The notes: generated from the sequence alone by a model not told the origin. Shown: positions 199-25,858, numbered from the stretch's first letter. The stretch is DNA of 32,000 nt from Candidatus Nanosynbacter sp. BB002 (GCF_037013405.1 NZ_CP146064.1:150001-182000); one strand, 5' to 3'. Program-made: numbers and translations.

Positions 199-1428
199 AT
201 GCAAGAACAATCTCATTATGCGGTAGGAATTGATATCGGCACGAAAAAAGTGCGATGTGTTATTGGACATATTGACGAAACAACGGGCGTGCCGAGAATT
301 ATTGGAGTGGGACAGGCTCCCAACAGCGGGATGCGTAAAGGTGTGATCACGCACTTGAATGGGCCGGCAGCGGCGATTGATACGGCGCTTGACGCTGCAG
401 AGCGAATGAGCGGACATCGAGTGAATCAAGCTGCTTTAGGTACTAATGGCGTGCACATCATCAGTACTAGAGTAGACGGTATGGTTGCTGTTAATGCAAG
501 CAGTAGTGAAGTGACGGAAGACGACGTAGCGCGTCTGGAGAATGTAGCGACAGTTGGAAAAGTTCCTGCAAATCGTGAGATTTTGGAAGTAGTTCCGTAC
601 GAATATCGATTGGATGGGCAAGATAATATCAAAAACCCGATTGGTATGACTGGGACGAGGTTGGAGCTACGAGCAAATGTTGTCTCTGGGTTGGTGCCGC
701 ACTTGGGGAATTTACACAAGTTGGCGGAGATGTCCAATATTGATGCTGTCAGAATAGTCCCAACAGTATTGGCGAGCGCTCAAGCGGTATTGAATGAATC
801 TCAGATGGAAAATGGTGTGGCTGTGATCGACATCGGGGCTTCCACGACAGGAGTGGCGGTGTTCGAAGAGGGTGACTTGCAGCATCTTTCAGTTGTTCCG
901 ATGGGCTCACAGAACGTCACCAATGATTTGGCGATTGGTCTTAAGGTTGATTTGGAAATTGCTGAAAAAGTTAAGTTGCAGCATGGTGAATTGGGCGGCG
1001 AGACTACGGGCGTGATTGACATTAAGCACGAGAAGGAAACGCAGGTTTTTCACCGGGCAGAAGTTGCAGAAATCGTTGAAGCGCGCTATGAAGAAATTTT
1101 TGAGCTGGTCGCTAAGGAACTGAAAAAGGCAGGTGGCATTAGCAAAATGCCGAGCGGAGCCGTGTTAGTTGGCGGTGGCGCTAAAGTTAAGGGCTTGGCT
1201 GAATTTGCCAAAGAACAGATTGGGCTGGCAGTGAAAATCGGCAAACCGCAGGACTATGCTGGCATGACTGATGATATCAAAGATCCAGAGTATGCAGCGG
1301 CTATAGGACTAATGTTGGCAATGTCCACCAATCCGTCCCGCTCTGAAGGAACTCATGGTAAAAAAGCTAGTAAAGTTGCCCAAAAGGCTGGCGGATTCTT
1401 AGGTGGGTTATTCGCAAAATTCAAATAA
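199..1428 (+). CDS. ftsA: Cell division protein FtsA
   Basis: Actin-fold motifs AVGIDIGTKKV and VLVGGGAKVKG. C-terminal amphipathic membrane-targeting helix GGFLGGLFAKFK. Lies immediately upstream of ftsZ. Confidence 0.95.
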   Translation: MQEQSHYAVGIDIGTKKVRCVIGHIDETTGVPRIIGVGQAPNSGMRKGVITHLNGPAAAIDTALDAAERMSGHRVNQAALGTNGVHIISTRVDGMVAVNASSSEVTEDDVARLENVATVGKVPANREILEVVPYEYRLDGQDNIKNPIGMTGTRLELRANVVSGLVPHLGNLHKLAEMSNIDAVRIVPTVLASAQAVLNESQMENGVAVIDIGASTTGVAVFEEGDLQHLSVVPMGSQNVTNDLAIGLKVDLEIAEKVKLQHGELGGETTGVIDIKHEKETQVFHRAEVAEIVEARYEEIFELVAKELKKAGGISKMPSGAVLVGGGAKVKGLAEFAKEQIGLAVKIGKPQDYAGMTDDIKDPEYAAAIGLMLAMSTNPSRSEGTHGKKASKVAQKAGGFLGGLFAKFK

Positions 1429-4797: not shown

Positions 4798-5042
4798 AGG
4801 GCGTTTTTGCGTGTGTCTAATGAGGTTTTCTCTGATGATGTCAGCGCAAAATGAGCGGCTATCAACCGCGAAGCCTGCGGGAAGAAATCAGTTTTTATCA
4901 GCTGAGATTAGACCCCGCCGTGAGCTTGCGTAAATAGCATAAGAAAGAGCTAAAAGAATCACTTCTTTTGGAATCGAGATGGTACCGTCCGTTTGAAACA
5001 CCTCCAGCGGATTCTCGAAGACAGAAGAGGTGATTTTTGTTT
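4798..5042 (+). promoter_or_regulatory. T-box-like riboswitch leader (Ile specifier candidate AUC) ahead of the DUF4145-ileS operon
   Basis: GA/K-turn-like CUGAUGA (4832-4838) with CUGA (4902-4905). GAA-AUC-A at 4884-4890. Stem III hairpin AAAAGAA-UCAC-UUCUUUU (4952-4969). Antiterminator: UCGAGA (4974-4979), 7-nt bulge UGGUACC (4980-4986), GUCCG (4987-4991), 16-nt loop, CGGAU (5008-5012), UCUCGA (5013-5018). Competing terminator: CACCUC (4999-5004)/GAGGUG (5027-5032) plus UUCU/AGAA, then AUUUUUGUUU. Stem I could not be folded confidently by hand. Confidence 0.55.
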
Positions 5043-5052
5043 GAGGAGAATA

Positions 5053-5706
5053 ATGACAAAAATAACGTATTATCCACCGGAATACAGGAAAGATGAGTTT
5101 AACTGTGCATATTGTAAGGTGTTTGCACATCAAAAGTGGAATTATAATTATATATTCAATTCATTCTCGTCACTATTAGAGTTACTCGCTATATCGAAAT
5201 GTGAACACTGCGGTAGATGGTCTATCTGGATTGAGGAGTCTTTAGTTTATCCGGTGCAAATTACAGTGGAAGATCCGAATGATGACATGCCAGATGAGGT
5301 TAAAAAACTATATAGAGAGTCTGCTCAAATTTTGTCTATTTCACCCCGTGCGGCTGCAGCACTATTGAGGCTAGGATTGCAGATACTTCTCGGTGCTGTG
5401 GGGGGTGATGGTAAAAATATAAATAATGATATAAAGAAAATAGTTGCGTTGGGTGTTGAACCTGAAACACAAAGGGCTCTAGATATTCTAAGGGTATTTG
5501 GTAATAGTGGAGCTCACCCTGGGGAGATTAAGCTTGATGAAGATCCTGGCCTGGTGCACAAAATGTATAGGCTAATGAACTATGTTACCGATAGGCTTAT
5601 CACCCAGAAGAATCAGATAAATGAGTTATTCGAAGGTTTATCAGAGGGAATTAAAGATCAGATTGAATCACGAGATAGTAAAAATAAGGACAAGGAGAGA
5701 TCATGA
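5053..5706 (+). CDS. Zinc-ribbon + DUF4145-domain protein (accessory gene, function unknown)
   Basis: Start moved to ATG 5053 (MTKITYY...) behind SD GAGGAG at 5043-5048. N-terminal CAYC...CEHC zinc ribbon. C-terminal pattern SPRAAAALLRLGLQILL...ALDILRVFGNSGAHPGE matches the DUF4145 signature (R..gN.aaH). Visibly AT-rich. Its TGA stop overlaps the ileS ATG (ATGA). Confidence 0.7.
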   Translation: MTKITYYPPEYRKDEFNCAYCKVFAHQKWNYNYIFNSFSSLLELLAISKCEHCGRWSIWIEESLVYPVQITVEDPNDDMPDEVKKLYRESAQILSISPRAAAALLRLGLQILLGAVGGDGKNINNDIKKIVALGVEPETQRALDILRVFGNSGAHPGEIKLDEDPGLVHKMYRLMNYVTDRLITQKNQINELFEGLSEGIKDQIESRDSKNKDKERS

Positions 5707-8700
5707 TGAAATTCAAACACGGCGTACGCCGCCGAGCAGCAGAATATGAAAAGGATTGGGTGCAGCGCTGGAAGGACGACCGGACGTTCCAAAAGTCGGT
5801 GGCGCAGCGGCCGGCGGATAATGCGTATGTCTTTTATGATGGGCCGCCGTTTATCACCGGTGTGCCACATCACGGAACGCTGCTCAGCAGTATTGTGAAG
5901 GACGCCGTGCCACGCTATTGGACAATGAAGGGTAAGCGCGTGGAGCGCCGTTGGGGCTGGGATTGCCATGGTCTACCGGCGGAGAATTTCGTCGAAAAGC
6001 AGCTGAATATTACCGACCGGCGGCAGATTGTGATGTGCCCGGGCCAGCCGGCACCGCTGGATAAAGACGGTCAGCCACTGCCGACCATCAGCCTGGAAAA
6101 ATACATCACCAAGGCGCGCGAAAGCATGGTGGCGAATAGCGAGACGTGGCAGGGTGTGATCGACCGGATTGGCCGCTGGGTGGACTTTACGGGCGCTTAC
6201 CGCACCATGGATAAGGACTTTATGGAGAGCGTTTGGTGGGCCTTTAAACAGCTGTATGAGGCTGGCAAAATCTACGAAGGCGAAAAGGTGCTGATGTATG
6301 ACACCAAGTTCGCCACCCCTGTCAGCAAGGCCGAAGTAACCATGGACAACGACGCCTACCAGACGGTGACCGACCCGAGTGTGTATGTGAAGTTTAAGTT
6401 AAAAGATGGTAAGACGAGCCACAAAATAGTATTAAGTGAACACTCAAAAGTCTTGTTTGTATGTAATGCAAATGCTGCTCGCTCGCAGATGGCGCAGGGA
6501 TTTTATAACCACTATTCTGGCTCTCAAAATGCCGATTCTGCTGGGTTGAACCCAGAGAAAAAATGGGGCGAAGCTCCAACATTGAGTGATTTTGAAACTA
6601 TGAGCCGCAAGCCAGCCAGAAGTAGTGAGACGATGCAAGAAGTGGGTATTGACATCACTGGACATAAGCGGCAGCTGCTTACCGCCGATAAGCTGGGTGA
6701 TTATGATTTGATCGTTAATCTAGCGGAGAAATCCCAGACACCGGACTGGCTCAGGGGTGATAATATTATTTGGTGGGATGTGGCTGATCCACGTAACGAG
6801 AGTGTAGAAAAAAATCGGATAGCGCGTGATGAAATTGAGCAGCGAGTAAAGCAACTTTTGAACGGTGAAATAGTTGATGATGCACAAAAGCCAGCAGGCT
6901 TTGACGAATGCGAGAGGAGTTATGTTGGCGCTTTGTTGGTGGATACAAATGGCAAACTCATTGCACAACAACGAGACGATAAGTCAGAAATCACAAACCC
7001 AGGCATGGTGAGCCTCTTTGGTGGGACGAGCCACGAGGGCGAGTCGCCAATTGAGACGCTACGCCGTGAGCTTCAGGAGGAGCTTGAGCTTGAAGTAAGC
7101 TCGAATAATCTTTTGCTGCAAACTGTCAAGCACGAAAATGGAACAAATGTTGCATGTTCCATCTATATTGTGACTGGTGTTGATGCTGAGAAGCTAGAAT
7201 TACATGAGGGTGCAGGATTTGCTATGGGTACGCCAGAAGAGCTGCTGAGCCGCCCTGTGACAGCCGTGACTCAGCAGGCGATTGAAGCGTTTGTTGAAGC
7301 TCAAGATTCTGTATCTGTCCTGGCCTGGACCACTACCCCGTGGACGCTCCCAGCCAACCTGATGCTGGCGGTTAATCCGGAGATGACGTACTGCGAAGTG
7401 CTGGTGGGGGGTGAGAAGCTAATCATCGCTGAGGAAGCGTTGGGACGCACCCTGCAGGACGAAAAGCACCATCCACTAGATTACAAAGTATTGCGCACAT
7501 TCCCCGGCAGTGAATTGGTCGGCAAGAAATACCAGCCGCTCGATACGGGCTCGACTTGGCCAGAAAATGACAAGATCCACACCATTTACGCGGCGGATTT
7601 CGTCTCGCACGAGTCGGGTACGGGCATCGTGCACATTGCGCCGGCTTATGGTGAGGACGATTTTGAGCTCGCCAAACGCTATGGTGTCAGTGCTTTCCAT
7701 GTCATCGATGATAATGGCTACTACACCGATGGTAATTATAAGGGCCTGGAGGTGTGGGACAACAACAAATTCATCGCCAAAGATCTGAAGGAAAAGGGCG
7801 CGGTGTGGAAGATTGAGTATATTCGCCACGAATATCCGTTTAACCCGCGTAGCAAGCAGCGCATCATGTACCGGGCTATCCCCAGTTGGTTCTTTGACAT
7901 TCAGGGGCAAAAGCCGCTGATGCTGGAGCAGAACGAGCATATCAATTGGTTTCCAGGCCATCTGAAGCACGGCCGCTTTGCCAAGAACATCGAGCAAGCG
8001 CCGGACTGGAACCTGAGCCGCGACCGCTTCTGGGCGACGGCCATGCCGGTGTGGAAGGGTGACCGCGGCACCGTTAAGGTGGTCGGCTCGTATGCGGAGC
8101 TCAAGGAGCTGAGCGGCGTGGAGCTGGATGATTACCACCGCCCGTGGGTGGATGATATCACCTTTGAAATTGACGGCGAGAAATTTACGCGCATTGACAA
8201 GGTACTGGACTGTTGGTTTGAGTCAGGTTCTATGCCGTTTGCGCAGCTGCACTATCCGTTTGAAAACCAGGCCAAGTTTGAGCAGAATTACCCAGCGGAC
8301 TTCATCGTTGAGTACATCGGCCAGGTGAGGGCATGGTTCTACTACGTGCATGCCGTCAACGCCGCCTTGGCGGAAATTGGTGCCTTTGGTCAGGCCGGCG
8401 CCCAGCACAAAAACGCCTACAGCAACGTCATTACCACTGGTGTGGTGGCGGGCAATGACGGCCGCAAGATGAGTAAGTCCTTAGGTAACTTTACCGACCC
8501 GAACGAGCTGATGGATAAGTTTAGTGCCGATAGTTTACGCTTCTTGCTGCTGAGCAGTCCGCTGCTGAACGGCGAGGACTTTGCCTTGCACGATAAGGAC
8601 GTTGGTGACGTGGCGCGTAAGCTCAGTATGATTTGGAATATGTATGATTTCTTTACCATGTATGCGGAAGTCGATGGCTGGGAATTTAGTGGTGAGCTGA

Positions 8701-9614
8701 AAGATCCGCTTGGCGAGTTGACGAATCCGCTGGATGTCTGGATTGTTAGTCGTCTGCATCAGCTGGTAGCAGAAGTTGAGCGTCACATGGATACCTACAA
8801 TATCCCTGACGCGCTGAGCCCGATATTGCCGTTCCTGGACGACGCGTCTAACTGGTATGTTCGCCGTAGCCGTCGCCGCTTCTGGAAATCTGAGGATGAT
8901 GGCGATAAGAACGATGCGTACCGCACGCTACATTATGTGCTGGTGCGTCTGAGCTACATCTTGGCGCCATTTACGCCGTTTTTGGCTGAGGAGTTGTATC
9001 GCAATTTGACGGGCGATAATGAATCGATTCACTTGAAGGATTGGTTGCCGGCGGGTGAAGTCAATGATCAGGTGTTGGCCGATATGTACCGGACACGCGA
9101 ATTGATCAACAACGGCCTTAGTTTGCGTATGAAGCAGGATGAGCATCAGGTGTCGATCAAGGTTCGCCAGCCGCTGCAATGTGCGGCATATGCGGGTGCA
9201 AAGCTGGCTGAGTACTACGAACAGATCATGGCCGAGGAGCTAAATGTTAAGGAAATTCGCTGGATTGAGAGTCTAGACGAGCATCTGGCGGACTATGATG
9301 TGACTGAGGGCGTGATCAAGCCAGAGAGCTGGGTAGAAATTAGTAAGCACTTAACGCCCGAACTCAAACGCGAGGGTCTGATGCGTGAAGTCATTCGCCA
9401 CGTCCAGAGTGCGCGTAAAAAAGCGGGGCTACAGGTGGATGATCGGATTATGCTGCAGCTGATGACGGATGACGAGCAGCTCCGTCAAGCGATTGATGAG
9501 CATGCGGAGGTGATTGCTGCTGAGACATTGGCAACCTTTGGGCAAAGCGACGCGTATTCAACCACGGTTGTGATAGAAGGTGCAGAGCTGCAGATTACGC
9601 TTCAGCGCCAGTAA
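5703..9614 (+). CDS. ileS: Isoleucyl-tRNA synthetase (type-2-like) carrying a ~300-aa in-frame insertion
   Basis: PPFITGVPHHGT (HIGH region), WTTTPWTLP and GTGIVHIAPAYGEDD (CP1 editing), WNLSRDRFWATAMPVW, KMSKS (GRKMSKSLGN), and no C-terminal zinc-finger. SD AAGGAG at 5692-5697. At 1303 aa it is about 300 aa longer than the core motifs account for. Confidence 0.95.
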   Translation: MMKFKHGVRRRAAEYEKDWVQRWKDDRTFQKSVAQRPADNAYVFYDGPPFITGVPHHGTLLSSIVKDAVPRYWTMKGKRVERRWGWDCHGLPAENFVEKQLNITDRRQIVMCPGQPAPLDKDGQPLPTISLEKYITKARESMVANSETWQGVIDRIGRWVDFTGAYRTMDKDFMESVWWAFKQLYEAGKIYEGEKVLMYDTKFATPVSKAEVTMDNDAYQTVTDPSVYVKFKLKDGKTSHKIVLSEHSKVLFVCNANAARSQMAQGFYNHYSGSQNADSAGLNPEKKWGEAPTLSDFETMSRKPARSSETMQEVGIDITGHKRQLLTADKLGDYDLIVNLAEKSQTPDWLRGDNIIWWDVADPRNESVEKNRIARDEIEQRVKQLLNGEIVDDAQKPAGFDECERSYVGALLVDTNGKLIAQQRDDKSEITNPGMVSLFGGTSHEGESPIETLRRELQEELELEVSSNNLLLQTVKHENGTNVACSIYIVTGVDAEKLELHEGAGFAMGTPEELLSRPVTAVTQQAIEAFVEAQDSVSVLAWTTTPWTLPANLMLAVNPEMTYCEVLVGGEKLIIAEEALGRTLQDEKHHPLDYKVLRTFPGSELVGKKYQPLDTGSTWPENDKIHTIYAADFVSHESGTGIVHIAPAYGEDDFELAKRYGVSAFHVIDDNGYYTDGNYKGLEVWDNNKFIAKDLKEKGAVWKIEYIRHEYPFNPRSKQRIMYRAIPSWFFDIQGQKPLMLEQNEHINWFPGHLKHGRFAKNIEQAPDWNLSRDRFWATAMPVWKGDRGTVKVVGSYAELKELSGVELDDYHRPWVDDITFEIDGEKFTRIDKVLDCWFESGSMPFAQLHYPFENQAKFEQNYPADFIVEYIGQVRAWFYYVHAVNAALAEIGAFGQAGAQHKNAYSNVITTGVVAGNDGRKMSKSLGNFTDPNELMDKFSADSLRFLLLSSPLLNGEDFALHDKDVGDVARKLSMIWNMYDFFTMYAEVDGWEFSGELKDPLGELTNPLDVWIVSRLHQLVAEVERHMDTYNIPDALSPILPFLDDASNWYVRRSRRRFWKSEDDGDKNDAYRTLHYVLVRLSYILAPFTPFLAEELYRNLTGDNESIHLKDWLPAGEVNDQVLADMYRTRELINNGLSLRMKQDEHQVSIKVRQPLQCAAYAGAKLAEYYEQIMAEELNVKEIRWIESLDEHLADYDVTEGVIKPESWVEISKHLTPELKREGLMREVIRHVQSARKKAGLQVDDRIMLQLMTDDEQLRQAIDEHAEVIAAETLATFGQSDAYSTTVVIEGAELQITLQRQ
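6447..6872 (+). other. LMW-PTP/ArsC-superfamily phosphatase domain embedded in IleRS
   Basis: KVLFVCNANAARSQMAQGFY is a C-X5-R-(S/T) P-loop (Cys254, Arg260) with the RSQMA context of the ArsC/LMW-PTP family. DSAGL follows, then the DP general-acid loop (WWDVADPRNES) and a C-terminal helix (RDEIEQRVKQLL). It lacks the two downstream Cys of thioredoxin-coupled ArsC. Confidence 0.7.
6913..7300 (+). other. Nudix hydrolase domain embedded in IleRS
   Basis: Nudix box G-x5-E-x7-R-E-U-x-E-E-x-G-U is matched by GTSHEGESPIETLRRELQEELELEV (about 7022-7096). Only the penultimate G is replaced, by E. The flanking beta-strand-like segments (YVGALLVDTNGKLIAQQR, ACSIYIVTG) fit the fold. Confidence 0.75.
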
Positions 9615-9940: not shown

Positions 9941-11269
9941 ATGTTTGCAATCGAAGTGATGTCGCTATTGGCACGAGCAGGTGGTGGCGGAAGTAGTTCT
10001 GGCGGCGGCTCTGGTGGTGGCGGAATTTTTGCGCTACCTGCAGTTGTAGCTGCTGGCGTAGCTGGTTTTATTCGCTCAAAAACAGGTTCCAAGGCTGCTG
10101 GCGTGGCAGTGGGTATGGCGGCTGGAACCGTGGTTAGTTTGTTGTATCTTTGGGGCGGTACATTCGCTTTCATCGTGGCGATGATATCTACTGTCATCGG
10201 TGCCTTTGGTGGGGCGTGGGCTGATAAACTAGGTCGTTTCCGGAAAGGCAGTGCGGCAGCGCAACGGTCCGTGCAGCAAGCGGCGGCTTCGGACGCGGTG
10301 TGGAGCCCAGAGCGGTTAACGGAATACGCAGTATCAATTTTTGGCAAGTTCCAGCACGACTGGCAGCAGATGGACGTAGCGTCAATTCGGACTTACACCA
10401 CACAGCGATACGCAAATCACATCAGTCTGATGTTGTACGCCTTGCAGCAAATGGGCCGCACAAATCGCATGAGTAACATTCGCATCAAGGAAGTTATCAT
10501 CACGTCTGCTCATGACGATGCCAATGACCAGCAAGACCGTGTTAGTTTTGGTATTTTGGCTCAGGCAAATGATCAATTGATCGATACAGCAAGTGGTGAT
10601 GTTTTGACTGCGACGACAGAGGAGTTTGGCGAACAATGGAACTTTGTGCGCCATGAAAACACTTGGCTACTAGACAGCATCGATCAAGCGACGGAAGAGG
10701 AAAGCATGCTAGTGCGGTCTTTGAGGCAATTTGCTGTTGATAACAGGATGTACTTTAGCCCAGACTGGGGTAATCTACTGCTGCCAACCAGAGGTCAGTT
10801 GTTTAAGGCTGGGTTTAAGAATGCAGACATTAACAACCATATCATTGGCTTCTGGACAGGTGATTTGTTGGTCCAGTTATATACCTATCGCACCAAAGAA
10901 GACGAGTCAGGCGACCAATACGTGGTCGGGCAAATCAATCTGCCAAAATCATATGGTGGAATTTTAGTGGAGAGGCGCGGTAAACTCCTGTCGCGTCTGA
11001 AAGCTCCACGTGGATATAACAAAGTGTCTTTGGAATGGGGCGATTTCAATAAACGCTATCAAGTGTATGCGACTGACGAAAATCAAGTGACAAGTTTTGA
11101 GCTGCTCAATCCATCTTTTATGGCGTGGTTATACGACCAAGATATCAAAGTGAACATTGAAGTGGTTGACGATGTTGTGTATCTCTACGCAAAACTAAGC
11201 GCCAATGAGCAGCGCTACGAGGCAATGTTGGAAATTTTGAAGCGAAGCCACAAAGAACTAAAGATGTAA
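9941..11269 (+). CDS. Membrane protein with a Gly-rich N-terminus, a Tim44-like domain and an uncharacterised C-terminal domain
   Basis: The N-terminus has GGGGSSSGGGSGGGG plus 2-3 TM helices. The central region (WSPERLTEYAVSIFGKFQHDWQQMD...WNFVRHENTWLLDSIDQ) resembles the Tim44-like/NTF2-like fold. The C-terminal ~190 aa is unassigned. Confidence 0.55.
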   Translation: MFAIEVMSLLARAGGGGSSSGGGSGGGGIFALPAVVAAGVAGFIRSKTGSKAAGVAVGMAAGTVVSLLYLWGGTFAFIVAMISTVIGAFGGAWADKLGRFRKGSAAAQRSVQQAAASDAVWSPERLTEYAVSIFGKFQHDWQQMDVASIRTYTTQRYANHISLMLYALQQMGRTNRMSNIRIKEVIITSAHDDANDQQDRVSFGILAQANDQLIDTASGDVLTATTEEFGEQWNFVRHENTWLLDSIDQATEEESMLVRSLRQFAVDNRMYFSPDWGNLLLPTRGQLFKAGFKNADINNHIIGFWTGDLLVQLYTYRTKEDESGDQYVVGQINLPKSYGGILVERRGKLLSRLKAPRGYNKVSLEWGDFNKRYQVYATDENQVTSFELLNPSFMAWLYDQDIKVNIEVVDDVVYLYAKLSANEQRYEAMLEILKRSHKELKM

Positions 11270-14859: not shown

Positions 14860-15633
14860 ATGGAGCTACTGCGAACCGTTAAACGCAAATCATTTTTTAG
14901 TGAGGTGGTGTATCATCTGTTGAACATCAGCTTAGCTTTGGTATTATTTGGTATTACGCTCATGGTCCAATCGCCAGTAGCTGCGGTAGTATTGGTTATT
15001 TTGAGTAAGTGGCGTGTCTTGGCGGTGAGGCCACGTTTTTGGTGGACGAATATTCAGTCTAACTTGGTGGACTTGATCGTTGGATTGAGCGTGGTGGCAT
15101 TGCTGTACCTGTCTGTGGGGAATATCGCCGTGCAAATTGCTTTCACTGCCTTTTATATCATTTGGCTGGTGATCATCAAACCAATGTCAAAGCGCTGGCA
15201 AATGATGTTGCAGTCGGCCATCGCTATCTTATTTGGTACGGTAGCGTTATTCTCCATTGGTTATTTGTTGCCAGATATTGCAGTTGTTGCTGGCTCAATG
15301 GTCATTGGCTACAGTGCCGCTCGGCATTTTTTGGTTAGCTATAAAGAAGATCAAATAGTTCTGCTGAGCTCTATCTGGGGAATTATGTTTGCGGAGATTG
15401 GCTGGCTGGCGTACTATTGGACCTTTGCCTATGCTATACCAGGACTCACCATGATCAAACTTCCGCAGGTGACTATTATTTTGCTGTTGATATCTTTCTT
15501 GGGTGAGCGGGTCTATCGATCATGGAAGAAAAACGGTGCGGTCGTACGGAGCGAGATCATGCCGCCAGTCTTGTTTTCTGTAGCAGTGATAGGCGTTATA
15601 TTACTATTTTTCAACACAGTAACGAGGATTTGA
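14860..15633 (+). CDS. Multi-pass membrane protein, function unknown
   Basis: 257 aa with about 7 hydrophobic helices. A 3-nt gap to the downstream htrA suggests one operon. No recognisable catalytic motif. Confidence 0.5.
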   Translation: MELLRTVKRKSFFSEVVYHLLNISLALVLFGITLMVQSPVAAVVLVILSKWRVLAVRPRFWWTNIQSNLVDLIVGLSVVALLYLSVGNIAVQIAFTAFYIIWLVIIKPMSKRWQMMLQSAIAILFGTVALFSIGYLLPDIAVVAGSMVIGYSAARHFLVSYKEDQIVLLSSIWGIMFAEIGWLAYYWTFAYAIPGLTMIKLPQVTIILLLISFLGERVYRSWKKNGAVVRSEIMPPVLFSVAVIGVILLFFNTVTRI

Positions 15634-17619: not shown

Positions 17620-17699
17620 TATATGCTAAATTATACACCATTGAAGAGAAATTTCATAATCAACGTGGCTACTAGACGGCACGGGAAGAGTTGGCATGT

Positions 17700-18791
17700 A
17701 TGAATAAGCGCGTGAACAAATTGAAAGTAGATTTTCCTTCTTGTGAGGGTATTGTGACCGTTGATCATGATTTTCCAAAGATTCAGCTTGATCGTAAGCT
17801 AGGTGCTGAGCTAGTGCCTGGTGAAGTTGTTGACCTTTCTGAAGAACGACTAAAAAAATATCTTGAGTATGCTGAAATACCGGAGCAGCGTTGGGGCGAT
17901 TTGTCACTAATCATCACTGGTGCAGAAAATTCTTCGTATCTGGGGAGTGATGAATTAGGGTATGTAAGTGATGATGGCGAGGGAGGACTTGATGCTGTTA
18001 TCGGGATTGATTACGACTCTGACTCTGAGGCTACGCTACGGCATGAGCTGTGCCACGTCAAGGATGCGATAGATGGGGAAATTGACTTCCAGAAGAAAAA
18101 TTTGTTATACACACTGGGAAGTTCAATATCTAAAGAACGATTACGTAAGCAGGCCATTATAATTCATGCTTTGGGCGCTCTTGCTTATGCGTGCGGTATG
18201 TATTTTAACTCTGAAGAGATGAAAAATAGTGTGCTCTCTGCGTTGGTTGCAAATAATACCGTGGCTGCGGCATTATTGGGAGCACACCTGAAAGGGTATT
18301 ATCATGATCCAGGAGAAAAGCGCGCTCGTAAGGCTGCGGAACATGGTAAATGGTTACCACATGTGTTCACGAGGCGTATTGATACTATGCCTGTTGACGA
18401 ATTGGCGTCATCATTTGCGTCTCATCCTTGGACCTCGGTATATATAGCAAAAAATGATGATGAAGTGCGCGCCAGGGAGCAAGCCGCTGGCCAACTTGGT
18501 CTGTCGTATTATGCAACGACAGATCCAGAGGAGGTTAAACTGCTTGCCATTAAAGAGGCTGAGCGAGAGTATGTTGAGTATAAACGATTAGCCGAACAAG
18601 GGATAATCAGTAAAAGAGGACTTAGAGAGTTTAAGATTAGCGAAATAGCTGATGATTTCATGGATCGTGCAGAGGTAGCTACTAAAGGTGGCGGTGCAAT
18701 GGTTGCTGTACTGCCTGATTCTACACATCGTGTCAACATGGGAGAATATAGCAAACGATACGATGACATCAAGCGCGATATCACGGAATAG
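17700..18791 (+). CDS. Hypothetical protein with an HExxH motif (possible membrane-associated zinc metallopeptidase)
   Basis: LRHELCHVKD (HExxH) followed by two hydrophobic segments (AIIIHALGALAYACGMYF and VLSALVANNTVAAALLGAHL). The start is taken at the first ATG (17700); the ORF-track start is TTG 17691. No confident family assignment. Confidence 0.45.
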   Translation: MNKRVNKLKVDFPSCEGIVTVDHDFPKIQLDRKLGAELVPGEVVDLSEERLKKYLEYAEIPEQRWGDLSLIITGAENSSYLGSDELGYVSDDGEGGLDAVIGIDYDSDSEATLRHELCHVKDAIDGEIDFQKKNLLYTLGSSISKERLRKQAIIIHALGALAYACGMYFNSEEMKNSVLSALVANNTVAAALLGAHLKGYYHDPGEKRARKAAEHGKWLPHVFTRRIDTMPVDELASSFASHPWTSVYIAKNDDEVRAREQAAGQLGLSYYATTDPEEVKLLAIKEAEREYVEYKRLAEQGIISKRGLREFKISEIADDFMDRAEVATKGGGAMVAVLPDSTHRVNMGEYSKRYDDIKRDITE

Positions 18792-19908: not shown

Positions 19909-19937
19909 TTGACATTTTAGGCATTTGTATGTATAAT
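19909..19937 (+). promoter_or_regulatory. Consensus promoter TTGACA-17-TATAAT
   Basis: TTGACA at 19909-19914 and TATAAT at 19932-19937. The in-frame ATG at 19947 is 9 nt downstream. The ORF-track start at 19929 would lie inside the promoter. Confidence 0.55.
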
Positions 19938-19946
19938 ATGCTCAAC

Positions 19947-21074
19947 ATGGTTAAGCTTAAAAACATAATCCCCGCGCGACTGCGCAGAGTCGGGCAAGCC
20001 AGTCCGGGCAGAGAGCCTGTATATGACCAAAACCAGGTGATGTACAATCTGTATGAGAAGGGTTCCGTTGCCGTTCATCCACTCGAGCCGTTTGAAGAGG
20101 TGTCTTCAGAAGATATATCGCATCGGATGGAAATAGATCACTGTGTGAAGCGAGCACCTACGTTGGCGGAGCTGATGAGCGATAGGGAGCATGGCAGGGA
20201 AAACGATGTGCATAGTGTGATCGGTAGGCGGGCTTTGCTTTCGCGTGAGGTTGATGCCTTGACCCGAGCAGATTTTTCAGTGCAAACGGAGCAACAGACA
20301 ATTTCGGCATTGTTTTCTGGGTTGTGTGCGCGAAGTGATGATTTGGCGCGTACCTCACGATTGTCTAAAATCCGGAATCATCTCAACTATGTTGGTGAGC
20401 CGGAGCTCATGGAGGCGGCGCACGGAATCGCGACATATTGGAAGCATCGGTTGGATACGCATCTTGATAAAGCATTGTTTGTGATGCTGGGCGAAATTGG
20501 TAACATGGAACGTGCTGACTATGCCGCCCCAGAAGGAAAAATAAAAAGTGACGAATATTTCATGGAGTTGATCATGAGGGAGTTTTCTGATGATGAGTTG
20601 ACCCAATATGCTGATAGGCTGCTCATCGATGAGGGGGAATTGGTGAACTTGCCTAAAGAAAATGTTGATATCATCATGCTGGACGACTGGACAAGTAGTG
20701 GTATAGAAATCGCGGAACAGCAACAGTGTTTCTTGAGGCGACATCCGGACTTGAGGGACCATATAGAAGTTCAACTAGCGATTGCCAATGAAGAAAGGTT
20801 GAAAGTGGGCTTCCGTATGAATGGGGGGCAGTATGTGCCAGTTCGCTCCTACTACTCGGCAAATAGTTCATCCGAGCTTTTTAGTACGTATATTGCAGGG
20901 TCACATTCGTCAGACTACTCGTTGGCGTTTGATATTAGTTCTCTACTTGGAACAGAGGATACGATGCCACCAGGCGTGCAAGTTGCGCGACCATATCACC
21001 GAGACGACTATCAGACGACCTTTCGCCAGCGTTTACAGTACGCTAGGTCACGTGACTCAAACGTGATTAAATAG
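19947..21074 (+). CDS. Hypothetical protein with a PRTase-like (PRPP-loop-like) signature
   Basis: [16 protein letters not shown] resembles the type I phosphoribosyltransferase PRPP-binding motif (four hydrophobic residues, DD, xx(T/S)xG). [13 protein letters not shown] lies ~75 aa upstream, like the PPi loop. The start is chosen from promoter geometry. The family call is weak. Confidence 0.4.
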
Positions 21075-21778: not shown

Positions 21779-22477
21779 ATGGAACATTCAATTGATACTA
21801 TTAAACAAAAACCAGATACGTTGCCGTTGCCATCTGTTACCAAAACGTACAGATTGCCCGAGGGGATGTCGCTCGGACCAGATGAATCGGTCAAAGTGAA
21901 AGGGTTTATAGCTCGGGGAAGAATTGATGGAAGGTCGGCTGTCTTGGCTTTGGATGACTCGGGAGAGGATTATACTCAGGACTCAGTGCTGCAGTCTCAT
22001 CTTGAGGATGCAATTTTTGGAGATTTTTCATTTATGCGCTCAGCATATTATAACCACATTGCTCAGCATCAGGGCATGACGATGCCAGATATGATGAAAT
22101 TGACACCAGATGATTATAAGCAACTTACATCGACCGGTCTATCTACAGTGTTAGCAACTGGATCTTTGGAGGAGATAGAGCAGAGGCAGGGCTTCTCCGC
22201 GGGATTAGTTGTATCAAGGGGCGACGAACTGAAGAAAGTGGCTGATATTGAGCATAGGGCAGCAGAGATTGGTCTGTACTTTCGAGTGGCTGTACAGTTT
22301 CCTGGAGATGCGCAAGGAGCGAAAGGGTACATCCTATTGACGGATGCAGTTGGCAACCAGGTCATCATGCCGTCTCGTGAAGAGACGACAGACCTCCTGA
22401 AGCGCTTGTTTGGTTATCAAGAAACCGAAGAACAATTGTTTGATGCTGAAGCGGCGTTGTCGGCTATGTCTGAGTAA
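21779..22477 (+). CDS. Hypothetical protein (232 aa)
   Basis: Long ORF with its own strong promoter, followed by a terminator hairpin. No recognisable motif. Confidence 0.5.
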   Translation: MEHSIDTIKQKPDTLPLPSVTKTYRLPEGMSLGPDESVKVKGFIARGRIDGRSAVLALDDSGEDYTQDSVLQSHLEDAIFGDFSFMRSAYYNHIAQHQGMTMPDMMKLTPDDYKQLTSTGLSTVLATGSLEEIEQRQGFSAGLVVSRGDELKKVADIEHRAAEIGLYFRVAVQFPGDAQGAKGYILLTDAVGNQVIMPSREETTDLLKRLFGYQETEEQLFDAEAALSAMSE

Positions 22478-24526: not shown

Positions 24527-25858
24527 ATGAACAAAAACATGAATGTAGCTCCGGCGTTCCCAGACCTTAATAATACAGTTCCTGATGGCTGGGCTAACCT
24601 ATCAAGTGGGCTGGCTGTTCCAGAGAGTGCAGCTGCTGCATTCCCGAGCATTAATAAAGAGCCTAATGACTGGAATGAACTGGGAAATGGACTACTTGTT
24701 CCGGAAAGCGCAACAAAAGGTGGCGCTGAAAATGGCATGATGACGCGCGATGAGCGCATCACTGACGGCCAAGAGAGATTTAACGCCTTGAAGACCCGGG
24801 CTCAAGAAGGCTTGAGCAAGATGATGCAAGGTCTTAAAGACCGTTTTTATATCGGCATTAGTCGGGGTGCTGAGTTACCTGGTCAAATTGCCACTGGTGC
24901 TGAGATGGTACGAGAGACTGTAGCTCAAAAAGGTACTGAAGCGCAAGAGTTTGTTGTTCAAAAGGGTAGTGAAGCAAGAGAAGCTATTGTTCAAAAAGGC
25001 GCTGAAACAAAAGAGGCAATTGGTAATGCCTGGGGCGCTGCACGAGGAAAGGCTGCAGAACTGTTTGAAAAGGGTAGTGATGTAATACTGCAAAATGTAA
25101 AAGTAGCACGTGAACGCAAGGCTGCTAGAATAAAAAATCGTCAGGAGCGGCGAGCAGCTCGTCAGCAGGCGCGCGAACAACGAGTAGCTGAGCTCGACAA
25201 TCGCCAGGCGGCTCGTGTCAGTCGTCAGGAGGCTCGCCAGCAACAACGGGAAGCTCAAACTAAAGAGAATATAGCGGACAAGCTGGATACCGGGGACGAC
25301 AAGGTATTCATCCGGCAAGAGCAACAAGCAGACACTGGAGCAACCTTAGAGTCTATGATGACCAAGAGGGAGCTGAATGACGCTAATGCTAAAGTGGAAC
25401 AAATGAGCAAAGAAGCCGAGCGGGCAGAACAAGCGGCAGAAGCTGCTCGGTTAGAAGCAGATGCTAATCCTGGAGATGAGCGGTTACAGCTTGATGCCGA
25501 AGAAAAAGAGGGGCTGAAAATTGCAGCGAATGCTCGATTGAAGCGCGCAACAGGCGAAGTTACTCGGCTGCAGGCAGCGATGAGTCAGCTGGAGAAGAGC
25601 TCTGAAAGTGCGCAAAGCAATATTGAGGCTGCTCGAGAGCGTATTGAGGAGCGACGTGGTCGAGCTGAAGCGCGTAGAGCTGCTCGTATGGCTGCTCGTA
25701 AAGAAGCATTGGGCGACACCTGGGAATCAGCGAAAGATAGGGTTGCACGACTAGTAAATACCGACCCGAATAAGGTTAAACAGTTCGGCGTAAAGGTAGC
25801 AAAGGCAGCTGGTAGGTTGACTAAGGCTACCGCAAGTCGGTTGGTTCCAGTGAGCTAA
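24527..25858 (+). CDS. Repeat-containing, Arg/Ala/Glu/Gln-rich coiled-coil protein (hypothetical)
   Basis: 443 aa with an upstream TTGACA...TGcTAATCT promoter-like sequence and an AAAGGAAAA SD. It has internal repeats and long charged heptad-like stretches (RERKAARIKNRQERRAARQQAREQRVAELDNRQAAR...). Confidence 0.55.
   Translation: MNKNMNVAPAFPDLNNTVPDGWANLSSGLAVPESAAAAFPSINKEPNDWNELGNGLLVPESATKGGAENGMMTRDERITDGQERFNALKTRAQEGLSKMMQGLKDRFYIGISRGAELPGQIATGAEMVRETVAQKGTEAQEFVVQKGSEAREAIVQKGAETKEAIGNAWGAARGKAAELFEKGSDVILQNVKVARERKAARIKNRQERRAARQQAREQRVAELDNRQAARVSRQEARQQQREAQTKENIADKLDTGDDKVFIRQEQQADTGATLESMMTKRELNDANAKVEQMSKEAERAEQAAEAARLEADANPGDERLQLDAEEKEGLKIAANARLKRATGEVTRLQAAMSQLEKSSESAQSNIEAARERIEERRGRAEARRAARMAARKEALGDTWESAKDRVARLVNTDPNKVKQFGVKVAKAAGRLTKATASRLVPVS
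24920..25018 (+). repeat. Three tandem in-frame 33-nt (11-aa) repeats within the coiled-coil gene
   Basis: VAQKGTEAQEF / VVQKGSEAREA / IVQKGAETKEA, read directly from the translation. Confidence 0.8.

Follow-up and report, generated by a model that had tools for sequence, protein, structure and literature searches.

The 32,000-nucleotide (nt) stretch of the Candidatus Nanosynbacter sp. BB002 genome considered here (the window) contains ileS, the gene of a type-2 isoleucyl-tRNA synthetase (IleRS), and the CP1 editing domain of this enzyme is interrupted in frame by two further enzyme domains, a phosphatase of the low-molecular-weight protein tyrosine phosphatase (LMW-PTP)/ArsC fold, called LMWPc below after its Pfam family, and a Nudix domain. 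The hairpin that holds them is a lineage-specific insertion hot spot in Saccharibacteria, with varying contents that include an empty state or a putative 2H phosphoesterase, and both inserted domains are under purifying selection as strong as that acting on the host enzyme. The favored reading of this arrangement, to which a probability of about one half is given, is that the insert is an autonomous phosphoester clean-up cassette for which IleRS is a permissive scaffold.

Two enzyme domains in the IleRS editing domain

The start codon of ileS is preceded by an AAGGAG Shine–Dalgarno sequence and overlaps the stop codon of the upstream open reading frame (ORF) (ATGA). The product is 100% identical to a Candidatus Nanosynbacter sp. 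BB002 protein encoded on an 804-kb NCBI contig, annotated in the database as “class I tRNA ligase family protein”; an origin in Patescibacteria, guessed in an earlier sequence-only reading of the window, is supported. The TIGR00392 (ileS) model matches the protein with 731.3 bits (cut-off 621.4) in two stretches, with the insert between them, and Pfam finds tRNA-synt_1, Anticodon_1, DUF5915 (71 bits), and the PF13603 editing domain. The assignment to type 2 is based on the C-terminal DUF5915, on the best PDB relatives of an insert-free homologue (8c8u and 1ILE, with the type-1 1FFY much weaker), and on the scores of MupB (564 bits) and MupA (538 bits), with which they rank as relatives while lying far under the exception cut-offs. 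The Thr-rich peptide WTTTPWT, which takes part in editing by IleRS, is intact in all loci, and so are, in the window protein, the second editing motif and the KMSKS loop. The earlier claim that the flanking synthetase motifs are intact stands for these elements. The class I HIGH signature reads H56-H57-G58-T59, with Thr instead of His at the fourth position; this HHGT variant also occurs in insert-free Saccharibacteria IleRS, such as protein P0275, and is therefore lineage-wide. The gene appears to encode a working type-2 IleRS. This agrees with the earlier view of an intact synthetase and not a pseudogene, given the TIGR00392 score, the uninterrupted frame, and a ratio of nonsynonymous to synonymous substitutions (dN/dS) far below 1.

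In the window protein, 310 residues separate VYVKF from WTTTPWT. The insert-free IleRS P0275 (953 amino acids, aa) has 10 residues at the same site, KLSDDMTLLA, in the sequence context VYVKFKLSDDMTLLAWTTTPWT, and a short loop is found at this position in the solved type-2 structures 8c8u and 1ILE. The crystallized CP1 fragments 1wk8 and 1udz begin just ahead of the strand equivalent to VYVKF. Because of the short loop in the two structures and the start points of the two fragments, the insert can be placed in the first β-hairpin of the CP1 editing domain. The in-frame phosphatase and Nudix insert proposed from the sequence at the start of CP1 is confirmed by the ORF, by Pfam, and by the spacing of the two anchor motifs, and the alignment to type-2 IleRS shows that it replaces the short hairpin seen in P0275 and 8c8u. 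The insert junctions read ...FKLKDGK... and ...AQDSVSVLAW..., with no Cys/Ser/Thr ... His-Asn junction residues, and the Pfam scan of the window IleRS gave no Hint/intein domain at E <0.01. There is also no internal Met at the start of the LMWPc domain, whereas a free-standing homologous gene (locus L027, see below) begins MKILFVC. An intein or separate expression of the segment was accordingly rejected.

Two samples define how widespread the arrangement is. The best 120 clusters, each built at 90% identity, were collected from NCBI, ENA, JGI, and Logan assemblies, and an alignment of the LMWPc domain was scanned against one genome per GTDB species, with 114 genomes matched; the counts of loci given below refer to the best 80 loci, which come from 80 different assemblies, all Saccharibacteria. 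The LMWPc and Nudix module is present in all 120 clusters and in 31 of the 80 species-representative genomes. The presence/absence comparison proposed earlier therefore bears out the module as real in many relatives, but not as isolated: the architecture is common within oral Saccharibacteria and its catalytic residues are invariant.

Both PF01451 and PF00293 exceed their Pfam thresholds, and all the catalytic motifs quoted in the sequence-only reading are present (the C-X5-R-S P-loop, DSAGL, WDVADP, and the Nudix box), the last with Glu in place of its final Gly. Cys254 of the P-loop is the sole cysteine of the LMWPc domain. The Cys, Asn, Arg, and Ser of the P-loop together with the Asp-Pro pair, in which Asp362 is the predicted general acid, are invariant in 79/79 loci, across homologues 42–100% identical. 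The best phmmer match in PDB is Synechocystis ArsC (2l19, E 3.7e-13); the AlphaFold2 (AF2) model of the domain has pLDDT 87–94 and superposes on pI258 ArsC (1ljl) with a Foldseek TM of 0.82, and Wzb, AmsI, YwlE, and YfkJ are also among its Foldseek neighbors. The domain shares with this group (2l19, 1ljl, Wzb, and YwlE) the fold, the CX5R(S/T) P-loop with Asn, and the DP acid loop. It differs in having one cysteine and no resolving cysteines, in a subfamily-specific extension of 13–20 residues after DSAG, in being embedded in another protein, and in its partners, which are Nudix, 2H, and PemK.

In the Nudix domain, the box runs as GX5EX7REUXEEX[E]U (G441...E447...R455-E456...E459-E460), so that all metal-binding Glu and Arg residues are present, and REx2EE is invariant in the 32 Nudix-bearing sequences (31 loci and the window). 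The two-domain AF2 model (pTM 0.70) gives the Nudix part pLDDT 70–80; two globular domains, the question of the structural check suggested earlier, are thus predicted, the confidence in the Nudix fold being low. The nearest relatives are the small Nudix enzymes of the MutT/NudG type (E. coli NudG/ORF135, 2rrk; MutT; Bdellovibrio RppH, 3ees), with which the domain shares its size, the REx2EE box, and the best sequence and fold matches. It differs from them in staying under every equivalog threshold, in the last residue of the box, and in forming a subfamily of its own, “RDDKPxIxxPGxxxxFGG”, with duplications and with fusions to HAD, Ham1, formyltransferase, and LMWPc domains. The free relatives in this subfamily occur as tandem duplicates or as fusions to HAD phosphatases (four cases), Ham1/ITPase, a formyltransferase, a hexapeptide transferase, or a kinase-like domain.

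Selection on the insert was compared with that on the host enzyme in species pairs at dS 0.3–1.1. The dN/dS values are 0.08–0.15 for LMWPc, 0.04–0.11 for Nudix (at dS 0.6–1.1), and 0.03–0.13 for the host parts.

An insertion hot spot in Saccharibacteria

An LMWPc domain lies within IleRS at exactly the same hairpin in 79 of the 80 loci. Most often it is alone (44 loci, one of them truncated; spacer 173–179 aa), followed by LMWPc with Nudix (26 loci; 310 or 315 aa), LMWPc with Nudix and a serine hydrolase of the Ser_hydrolase family PF06821 (5 loci; 506 aa), and LMWPc with Ser_hydrolase (4 loci; 366 aa). The remaining locus, L027, has Ser_hydrolase only (200 aa). The GHSxG motif is invariant in all serine-hydrolase inserts. 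Nine hairpin contents, distinguished by domain set and spacer length, coexist in one clade in which the IleRS backbones are less than 12% different.

A second permissive hairpin, inside the editing domain and empty in the window, carries in five species (L005, L012, L014, L021, and L022) an extra α/β-hydrolase of 170–180 aa (“VVTHSLGAATF”; Pfam Hydrolase_4/Ser_hydrolase). Among these five, IleRS reaches up to 1737 aa, with four inserted enzymes.

The state of the first hairpin outside this sample was surveyed with the IleRS of a Microsaccharimonas genome (L034) as the query. Among its best 120 relatives, 100 are 945–1045 aa long and have a hairpin of 10–21 residues with no insert, which, together with the short loop of 8c8u, agrees with the statement in the sequence-only reading that only a few tens of residues normally lie here. 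Twelve relatives have an LMWPc domain at the hairpin, one has a 51-residue loop, and one (P0344) a 27-residue loop with an unrelated C-terminal extension; in three, the anchor motif was not found and the loop is left unclassified. The other three (P0276, P0326, and P0347) have a different domain of about 180 aa at the hairpin, with the two HxT/S motifs “EFHMSLL” and “IPHVTLY” and a match to Pfam 2H-SAK (PF22547) at E 1.1e-5 and 26.1 bits, below the threshold of 27.

No convincing direct repeats or target-site duplication were found flanking the insert. A tblastn search of the insert for a phage or plasmid source returned only generic ArsC at <35% identity and no two-domain match. There is no Rfam match in the window (T-box etc.) and no tRNA gene.

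Length variation of IleRS in the group has a further source. Low-complexity insertions of 21–62 aa, rich in Ser, Thr, Ala, and Glu, occur in P0038, P0062, P0091, L006, and L017 at two sites, one in the anticodon-binding region and one near the C-terminus (Table 1), and the variants of 1340–1400 aa are due to them.

Cassette exchange, free-standing relatives, and gene neighborhood

The nucleotide comparisons show that the insert passes between species as a cassette by homologous recombination. Sliding-window codon identity places the insert of the window within a tract of ~100% nucleotide identity to loci L001 and L002, whereas outside it (aa 1–140 and after aa 520) identity to the same loci is 80–88%; dS is 0.01–0.02 for LMWPc and 0.35–0.67 for the host flanks. 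A second, B allele of LMWPc, ~55% identical to that of the window (the A allele), is found in hosts whose backbone is 92–95% identical (L028, L035, L036, and L062), and the sequence of the N-terminal linker, KLKDGKTSHKIVLSEHS, is kept between the A and B alleles. Since the LMWPc of L028 is diverged but its Nudix part is ~87–92% identical in nucleotides to that of the window, the breakpoints fall at domain borders, and at the inter-domain linker the nucleotide identity to L028 rises from ~0.6 to 0.86.

Composition changes at the same place. The GC content at third codon positions (GC3) is 0.42–0.44 in the LMWPc and Nudix parts and 0.66–0.71 in the IleRS backbone (5703–6395 and 7335–9611), and this step is also seen in 14 related loci. 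The window has a GC content of 0.474 and its ordinary genes have a GC3 of 0.43–0.56, so that the backbone rather than the insert is the compositional outlier; codon bias or a horizontal origin of type-2 ileS are possible causes. The near-100% identity of the insert amid ~12–20% flank divergence, the two LMWPc alleles, and the GC3 step are in line with the option of a captured cassette raised in the sequence-only reading.

The whole of ileS is a mosaic with respect to L002, L003, and L001, in which patches of ~100% nucleotide identity alternate with stretches of 73–88%, as at aa 601–640 and 1001–1040 against L002. The gene would be a poor phylogenetic marker in this group.

Relatives of the phosphatase also exist outside IleRS. 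In L027, where the IleRS hairpin holds the serine hydrolase, a free-standing LMWPc of 149 aa is 66% identical to that of the window, and a Nudix gene of the YffH/AdpP/NudK type lies 45 nt downstream of it. A 164-aa free LMWPc is found between atpA and atpG in 11 metagenome loci. In a rare family (P0134, P0391, and P0392), LMWPc, 41–54% identical to the IleRS-borne domains, is fused to a C-terminal domain that is homologous to the 2H-type insert of IleRS (34% identity, E 2e-25). A homologue search with this LMWPc-2H fusion returned only 4 clusters, which makes the neighborhood statistics thin. Such fusion genes also lie in the atp operon, each sharing an overlap with another gene, of the Nudix type in L081 and for a PemK/MazF toxin in L082 and L083 (Pfam E 4e-9); no ligase or kinase was seen beside them in L081–L083. 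A free-standing LMWPc-Nudix fusion is also known (P0152).

Upstream of ileS in L027 (5283–9509) there are, in order, a GDSL acylhydrolase, the free LMWPc, and the AdpP/NudK-type Nudix, followed by an EcoRI-type adenine methylase and a gene whose product has an HNH-like C-terminus, so that ileS there adjoins both a cluster of hydrolases and a restriction-modification island. The atpA-atpG junction (metagenome contigs L081–L083, L086–L094, L107, and L126) is a lodging site whose cargo is LMWPc alone, Nudix with LMWPc-2H, or LMWPc-2H with PemK/MazF. Two of these contigs, L082 and L083, have in addition a DUF3224 gene placed between atpG and atpD.

In the window, the gene directly upstream of ileS encodes a DUF4145 protein and is present in only 3 of the 80 related loci. 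The slot between a LiaF-like gene and ileS measures 0.8–5 kb among 40 loci and constitutes a second variable site adjoining ileS. The gene directly downstream encodes a 442-aa protein, and five ORFs among the core genes have no Pfam match at E <=0.001 (Table 1).

Table 1. Coordinates of ileS, of its domains and motifs, and of other genes in the window
Feature	Residues (aa)	Position (nt)	Strand	Remarks
ileS, type-2 IleRS carrying the insert		5703-9614	+	1303 aa, single uninterrupted ORF
P-H-H-G-T, class I HIGH signature	55-59	5865-5879		
Recombination tract	~141-520	6123-7262	+	
VYVKF strand, upstream anchor of the CP1 hairpin	227-231	6381-6395	+	aligns with the strand before the short loop in P0275 and PDB 8c8u
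N-terminal linker KLKDGKTSHKIVLSEHS	232-248	6396-6446	+	predicted flexible, AF2 pLDDT <50 for model residues 1-13
LMW-PTP/ArsC-fold phosphatase domain	249-392	6447-6878	+	PF01451 aa 250-386, 44.8 bits (threshold 23.2)
LMWPc P-loop C254-N-A-N-A-A-R260-S261	254-261	6462-6485		
DSAGL	278-282			
D362-P363 (WWDVADP)	362-363	within 6771-6791		predicted general acid
Inter-domain linker ..DDAQKPAGFDECE..	393-405	6879-6917	+	also recombination border of the LMWPc alleles
Nudix domain	406-536	6918-7310	+	PF00293 aa 406-475, 35.0 bits (threshold 21.1)
Nudix box G441-L463	441-463	7023-7091		final consensus Gly replaced by Glu
WTTTPWT, Thr-rich editing-site peptide of CP1	542-548	7326-7346	+	starts 5 residues past the insert end
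Second permissive hairpin EVLVGG/EKLII	565-575	7395-7427	+	empty here; insertion after aa 570 in five species
Editing-domain motif GTGIVHIAPAYGEDD	639-653	7617-7661	+	intact; PF13603 match
KMSKS loop	922-926	8466-8480	+	intact
Low-complexity insertion site, anticodon-binding region	after 991-1003	~8673-8711		
Low-complexity insertion site, near C-terminus	after 1258	~9474		
DUF4145 gene		4993-5706	+	Pfam E 1.7e-12, GC 0.387, GC3 0.35
Gene of 442-aa protein		9941-11269	+	Gly-rich N-terminus, Tim44-like domain, weak DUF3137 match
ORF without Pfam match		14860-15633	+	the five such ORFs encode 232-443 aa
ORF without Pfam match		17691-18791	+	
ORF without Pfam match		19929-21074	+	
ORF without Pfam match		21779-22477	+	
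ORF without Pfam match		24527-25858	+	

Function of the module and relation to known systems

According to the favored reading, the synthetase part would aminoacylate and edit as usual, while a pyrophosphate linkage, either in a nucleotide or in a nucleotide-linked RNA-end adduct, would be cut by the Nudix domain. The Cys-phosphatase would strip a terminal phosphomonoester by forming a phospho-enzyme at Cys254; Arg260 would hold the phosphate and Asp362 would be the general acid. IleRS would be mainly a permissive scaffold and a constitutive expression vehicle. Catalytic coupling to aminoacylation seems unnecessary because orthologous phosphatases occur as free-standing genes, and the scaffold is favored on account of these orthologues and of the repeated lodging of the subfamily in the ileS ORF and the atp operon, both essential expression units. 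The module may belong to an RNA-end-healing or nucleotide-clean-up guild; this is suggested because of the 2H fusion, the Nudix and PemK/MazF neighbors, and the HAD and Ham1 fusions elsewhere. Enzymes of the 2H, phosphatase, and Nudix types are recognized companions in the clean-up of RNA 2′,3′-cyclic phosphates and also process ADP-ribose by-products (PMC9503650).

The known sets for healing RNA ends (the CPD of tRNA ligase Trl1, T4 Pnkp, and the “Swiss Army Knife” proteins behind Pfam 2H-SAK) have in common with the system described here the combination of a 2H domain, here putative, a phosphomonoesterase, and Nudix, and a metal-independent RNase toxin adjoins the free-standing relatives. 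Here, in contrast, the phosphatase has the LMW-PTP fold and not the HAD/DxDxT or calcineurin-like one, no ligase or kinase is associated, and the insert of the window has no 2H domain. The “Swiss Army Knife” proteins are reportedly described in an RNA-repair survey by Burroughs and Aravind from 2016.

Several observations weigh against an autonomous clean-up cassette. Its substrate is a prediction from the domain company, in which the 2H member is assigned from a score below the Pfam threshold plus two HxT/S motifs, the PemK association comes from two contigs of one lineage, and the Nudix genes beside free LMWPc (L027 and L081) fall outside the Nudix subfamily of the window, so that this pairing holds at the level of the superfamily only. 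The model of the Nudix domain by itself is weak (pLDDT 63), with fold matches to NudG, MutT, and BdRppH. The module is acidic (pI 4.8; Nudix 4.4), which argues against non-specific RNA binding. In addition, a pure scaffold leaves unexplained why several different hydrolases landed in IleRS, and the distance of 5 residues to the editing-site peptide, together with the second hydrolase in the editing domain, favors a link to the tRNA acceptor end.

This last point leads to a tentative alternative, unlikely but the best placed of the others, in which the insert is a cis-acting toolkit for deblocking tRNA 3′ ends. Domains on the CP1 hairpin, beside the editing pocket, would strip blocks from A76 of tRNA-Ile or of neighboring tRNAs: 2′,3′-cyclic phosphate (2H), 2′- or 3′-phosphate (LMWPc), pyrophosphate-linked or ADP-ribosyl-type adducts (Nudix), and acyl esters (Ser-hydrolase). 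They would counter tRNA-targeting toxins, and the turnover of cassettes would reflect an arms race. It is consistent with the position of the insert and with the second-hairpin hydrolase of five species, and all domains at the site are small hydrolases with chemistry suited to ribose-end adducts. The LMWPc-2H fusions occupy the antitoxin position ahead of the PemK/MazF RNase gene, and an arms race would fit the rapid change of architectures, the deep divergence of alleles, and the sweeps between species. Metal-independent RNase toxins leave 2′,3′-cyclic phosphate ends, which are cleaned by 2H enzymes and phosphatases (PMC9503650), and secreted effectors are indeed used against Saccharibacteria by their hosts (PMC13622651). 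However, the free-standing phosphatases of L027 and the atp operons indicate that tethering is dispensable, the insert is missing in 100 of the 120 environmental relatives, the module is acidic, and no LMW-PTP-fold enzyme acting on RNA ends was found in the literature searched. A broader form of the same idea, rather unlikely, takes the IleRS of host-associated Saccharibacteria as a modular “tool-holder”: the two editing-domain hairpins, fitted with interchangeable hydrolases, would have the tRNA acceptor end as their target in cis, and the strain-reshuffled locus would provide tRNA repair and anti-toxin immunity in an arms race.

It was proposed in the sequence-only reading that the module destroys a by-product, such as Ap4A or other Ap-n-N, or an inhibitor mimicking the aminoacyl-adenylate, or that it couples aminoacylation to nucleotide signaling. 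Aminoacyl-tRNA synthetases (aaRSs) indeed produce Ap4A and Nudix enzymes break it down (PMC10148737), and the module is covalently joined to an adenylate-forming enzyme. The proposal is nevertheless improbable and found no support in the domain comparisons: NudG, MutT, and BdRppH are the enzymes closest to the Nudix domain, and the equivalog models for MutT (TIGR00586), NudG (PRK10546), RppH, ADP-ribose pyrophosphatase, and Ap4A hydrolase all score below their thresholds (at best 32 vs. 156 bits, for NudG). The sequence after L463, EVSSNNLLLQTVKHENGT, has no Tyr at +16–18 and no Pro at +15 past the box, which we take to be the markers of Ap-n-A hydrolases and of ADP-ribose pyrophosphatases, respectively. 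Inserts of LMWPc with no Nudix beside it are older and far more frequent (44/80 loci), the cassette also occurs apart from any synthetase, with 2H, PemK, Nudix, and serine hydrolases as the partners of the phosphatase, and the insert sits on the editing domain and not at the adenylate site.

A regulatory protein phosphatase is quite improbable. In this case, LMWPc would act like Wzb or YwlE on phospho-Tyr or phospho-Arg of IleRS or of a partner, and Nudix would be an unrelated passenger. The fold neighbors Wzb, AmsI, YwlE, and YfkJ, and the CX5R(S) and DP machinery typical of LMW-PTPs, would agree with such a role, but the sequence resembles the ArsC-type branch more than the Wzb/YwlE one, no kinase partner is present in the neighborhood, and the recurring partners are phosphoesterases acting on nucleotides or RNA.

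A role of the domain as an arsenate reductase (ArsC), with the fusion to IleRS serving arsenic or redox defense, is very improbable, even though the top matches of the domain are LMW-PTP-fold ArsCs and single-cysteine ArsCs dependent on a low-molecular-weight thiol exist (3rh0 is among the matches). The ArsC profiles TIGR02691, TIGR02689, and PRK13530 gave 54, 40, and 42 bits, where the cut-offs are 158, 174, and 215 (the 54-bit score, against 157.6, is also entered under TIGR02689), thus missing the NCBIfam thresholds widely. The resolving cysteines of thioredoxin (Trx)- and glutaredoxin (Grx)-coupled ArsC are missing, as “VNLAEKSQTPDW” aligns to “ISLCGCGVNLPPEW”, no ars genes are present among those of the 32-kb window, and the partners are Nudix, 2H, and PemK rather than ArsB, ArsR, or Acr3. 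A true ArsC was rejected on these grounds. Finally, an assembly chimera, a pseudogene, or a segment that is removed or separately expressed can be practically dismissed: such an origin would account for the unusual length and the GC drop within the insert, but the same architecture recurs across >100 independent clusters as well as 31 species genomes, the contig is 804 kb long, and the frame is open under a dN/dS far below 1.

Compared with the solved type-2 enzymes, Priestia megaterium IleRS2 (8c8u) and Thermus thermophilus IleRS (1ILE), the window protein has the same Rossmann fold, CP1 with WTTTPWT and GTGxVHxAPxxGxxD, KMSKS, anticodon-binding domain, and C-terminal DUF5915. These are the eukaryote-like IleRS of the mupirocin-resistant type, and the insert-free P0275 matches 8c8u with E 5.5e-210. 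Their hairpin has ~10–12 residues, whereas that of the window has 310 residues with two enzyme domains, and its HIGH signature is HHGT. An IleRS with an extra catalytic domain has a curated precedent in NCBIfam NF040702 (“ileS_w_GNAT”, isoleucine--tRNA ligase, N-acetyltransferase domain-containing); there, however, the extra domain is GNAT, and the window protein is not a member, matching through its IleRS parts only (225 bits, cut-off 1999). Extra domains are tolerated and used in other aaRSs as well, including hydrolytic insertions in the core (ProRS INS, ThrRS N2, AlaRS C-Ala, free YbaK/AlaX, and the eukaryotic GST, WHEP, and EMAPII domains), but those act on aminoacyl-tRNA or mediate interactions and are lineage-fixed, whereas the inserts described here are generic phosphoesterases that vary from one close species to another and move as cassettes. 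Domain-bearing IleRS are thus known in principle, and what is unusual is the internal CP1 insertion of generic phosphoesterases, with several domains in series and rapid turnover of cassettes. No published description of an IleRS with an LMWPc, Nudix, 2H, or serine-hydrolase insert was found in the literature searched, in agreement with the sequence-only reading; in sequence databases, however, it is frequent among oral Saccharibacteria and forms one portion of the much larger hot spot.

The aaRSs are among the most conserved enzymes, and any additional domains are as a rule fixed and concern tRNA or editing. In the group described here, an essential synthetase holds generic phosphoesterases within its proofreading domain, and the set varies among species with ~90% identical backbones. 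Annotation pipelines downgrade such proteins to a general tRNA ligase family, and the use of the mosaic ileS as a marker would mislead phylogenies. If the inserted domains are passengers, then ultra-small genomes lodge accessory enzymes in essential genes and trade them as cassettes, and the hairpin would be a naturally validated permissive site for IleRS engineering. If the domains act on tRNA ends, this synthetase would be the first in which tRNA repair is built in, and it would represent a novel form of counter-defense in the conflict between epibiont and host.

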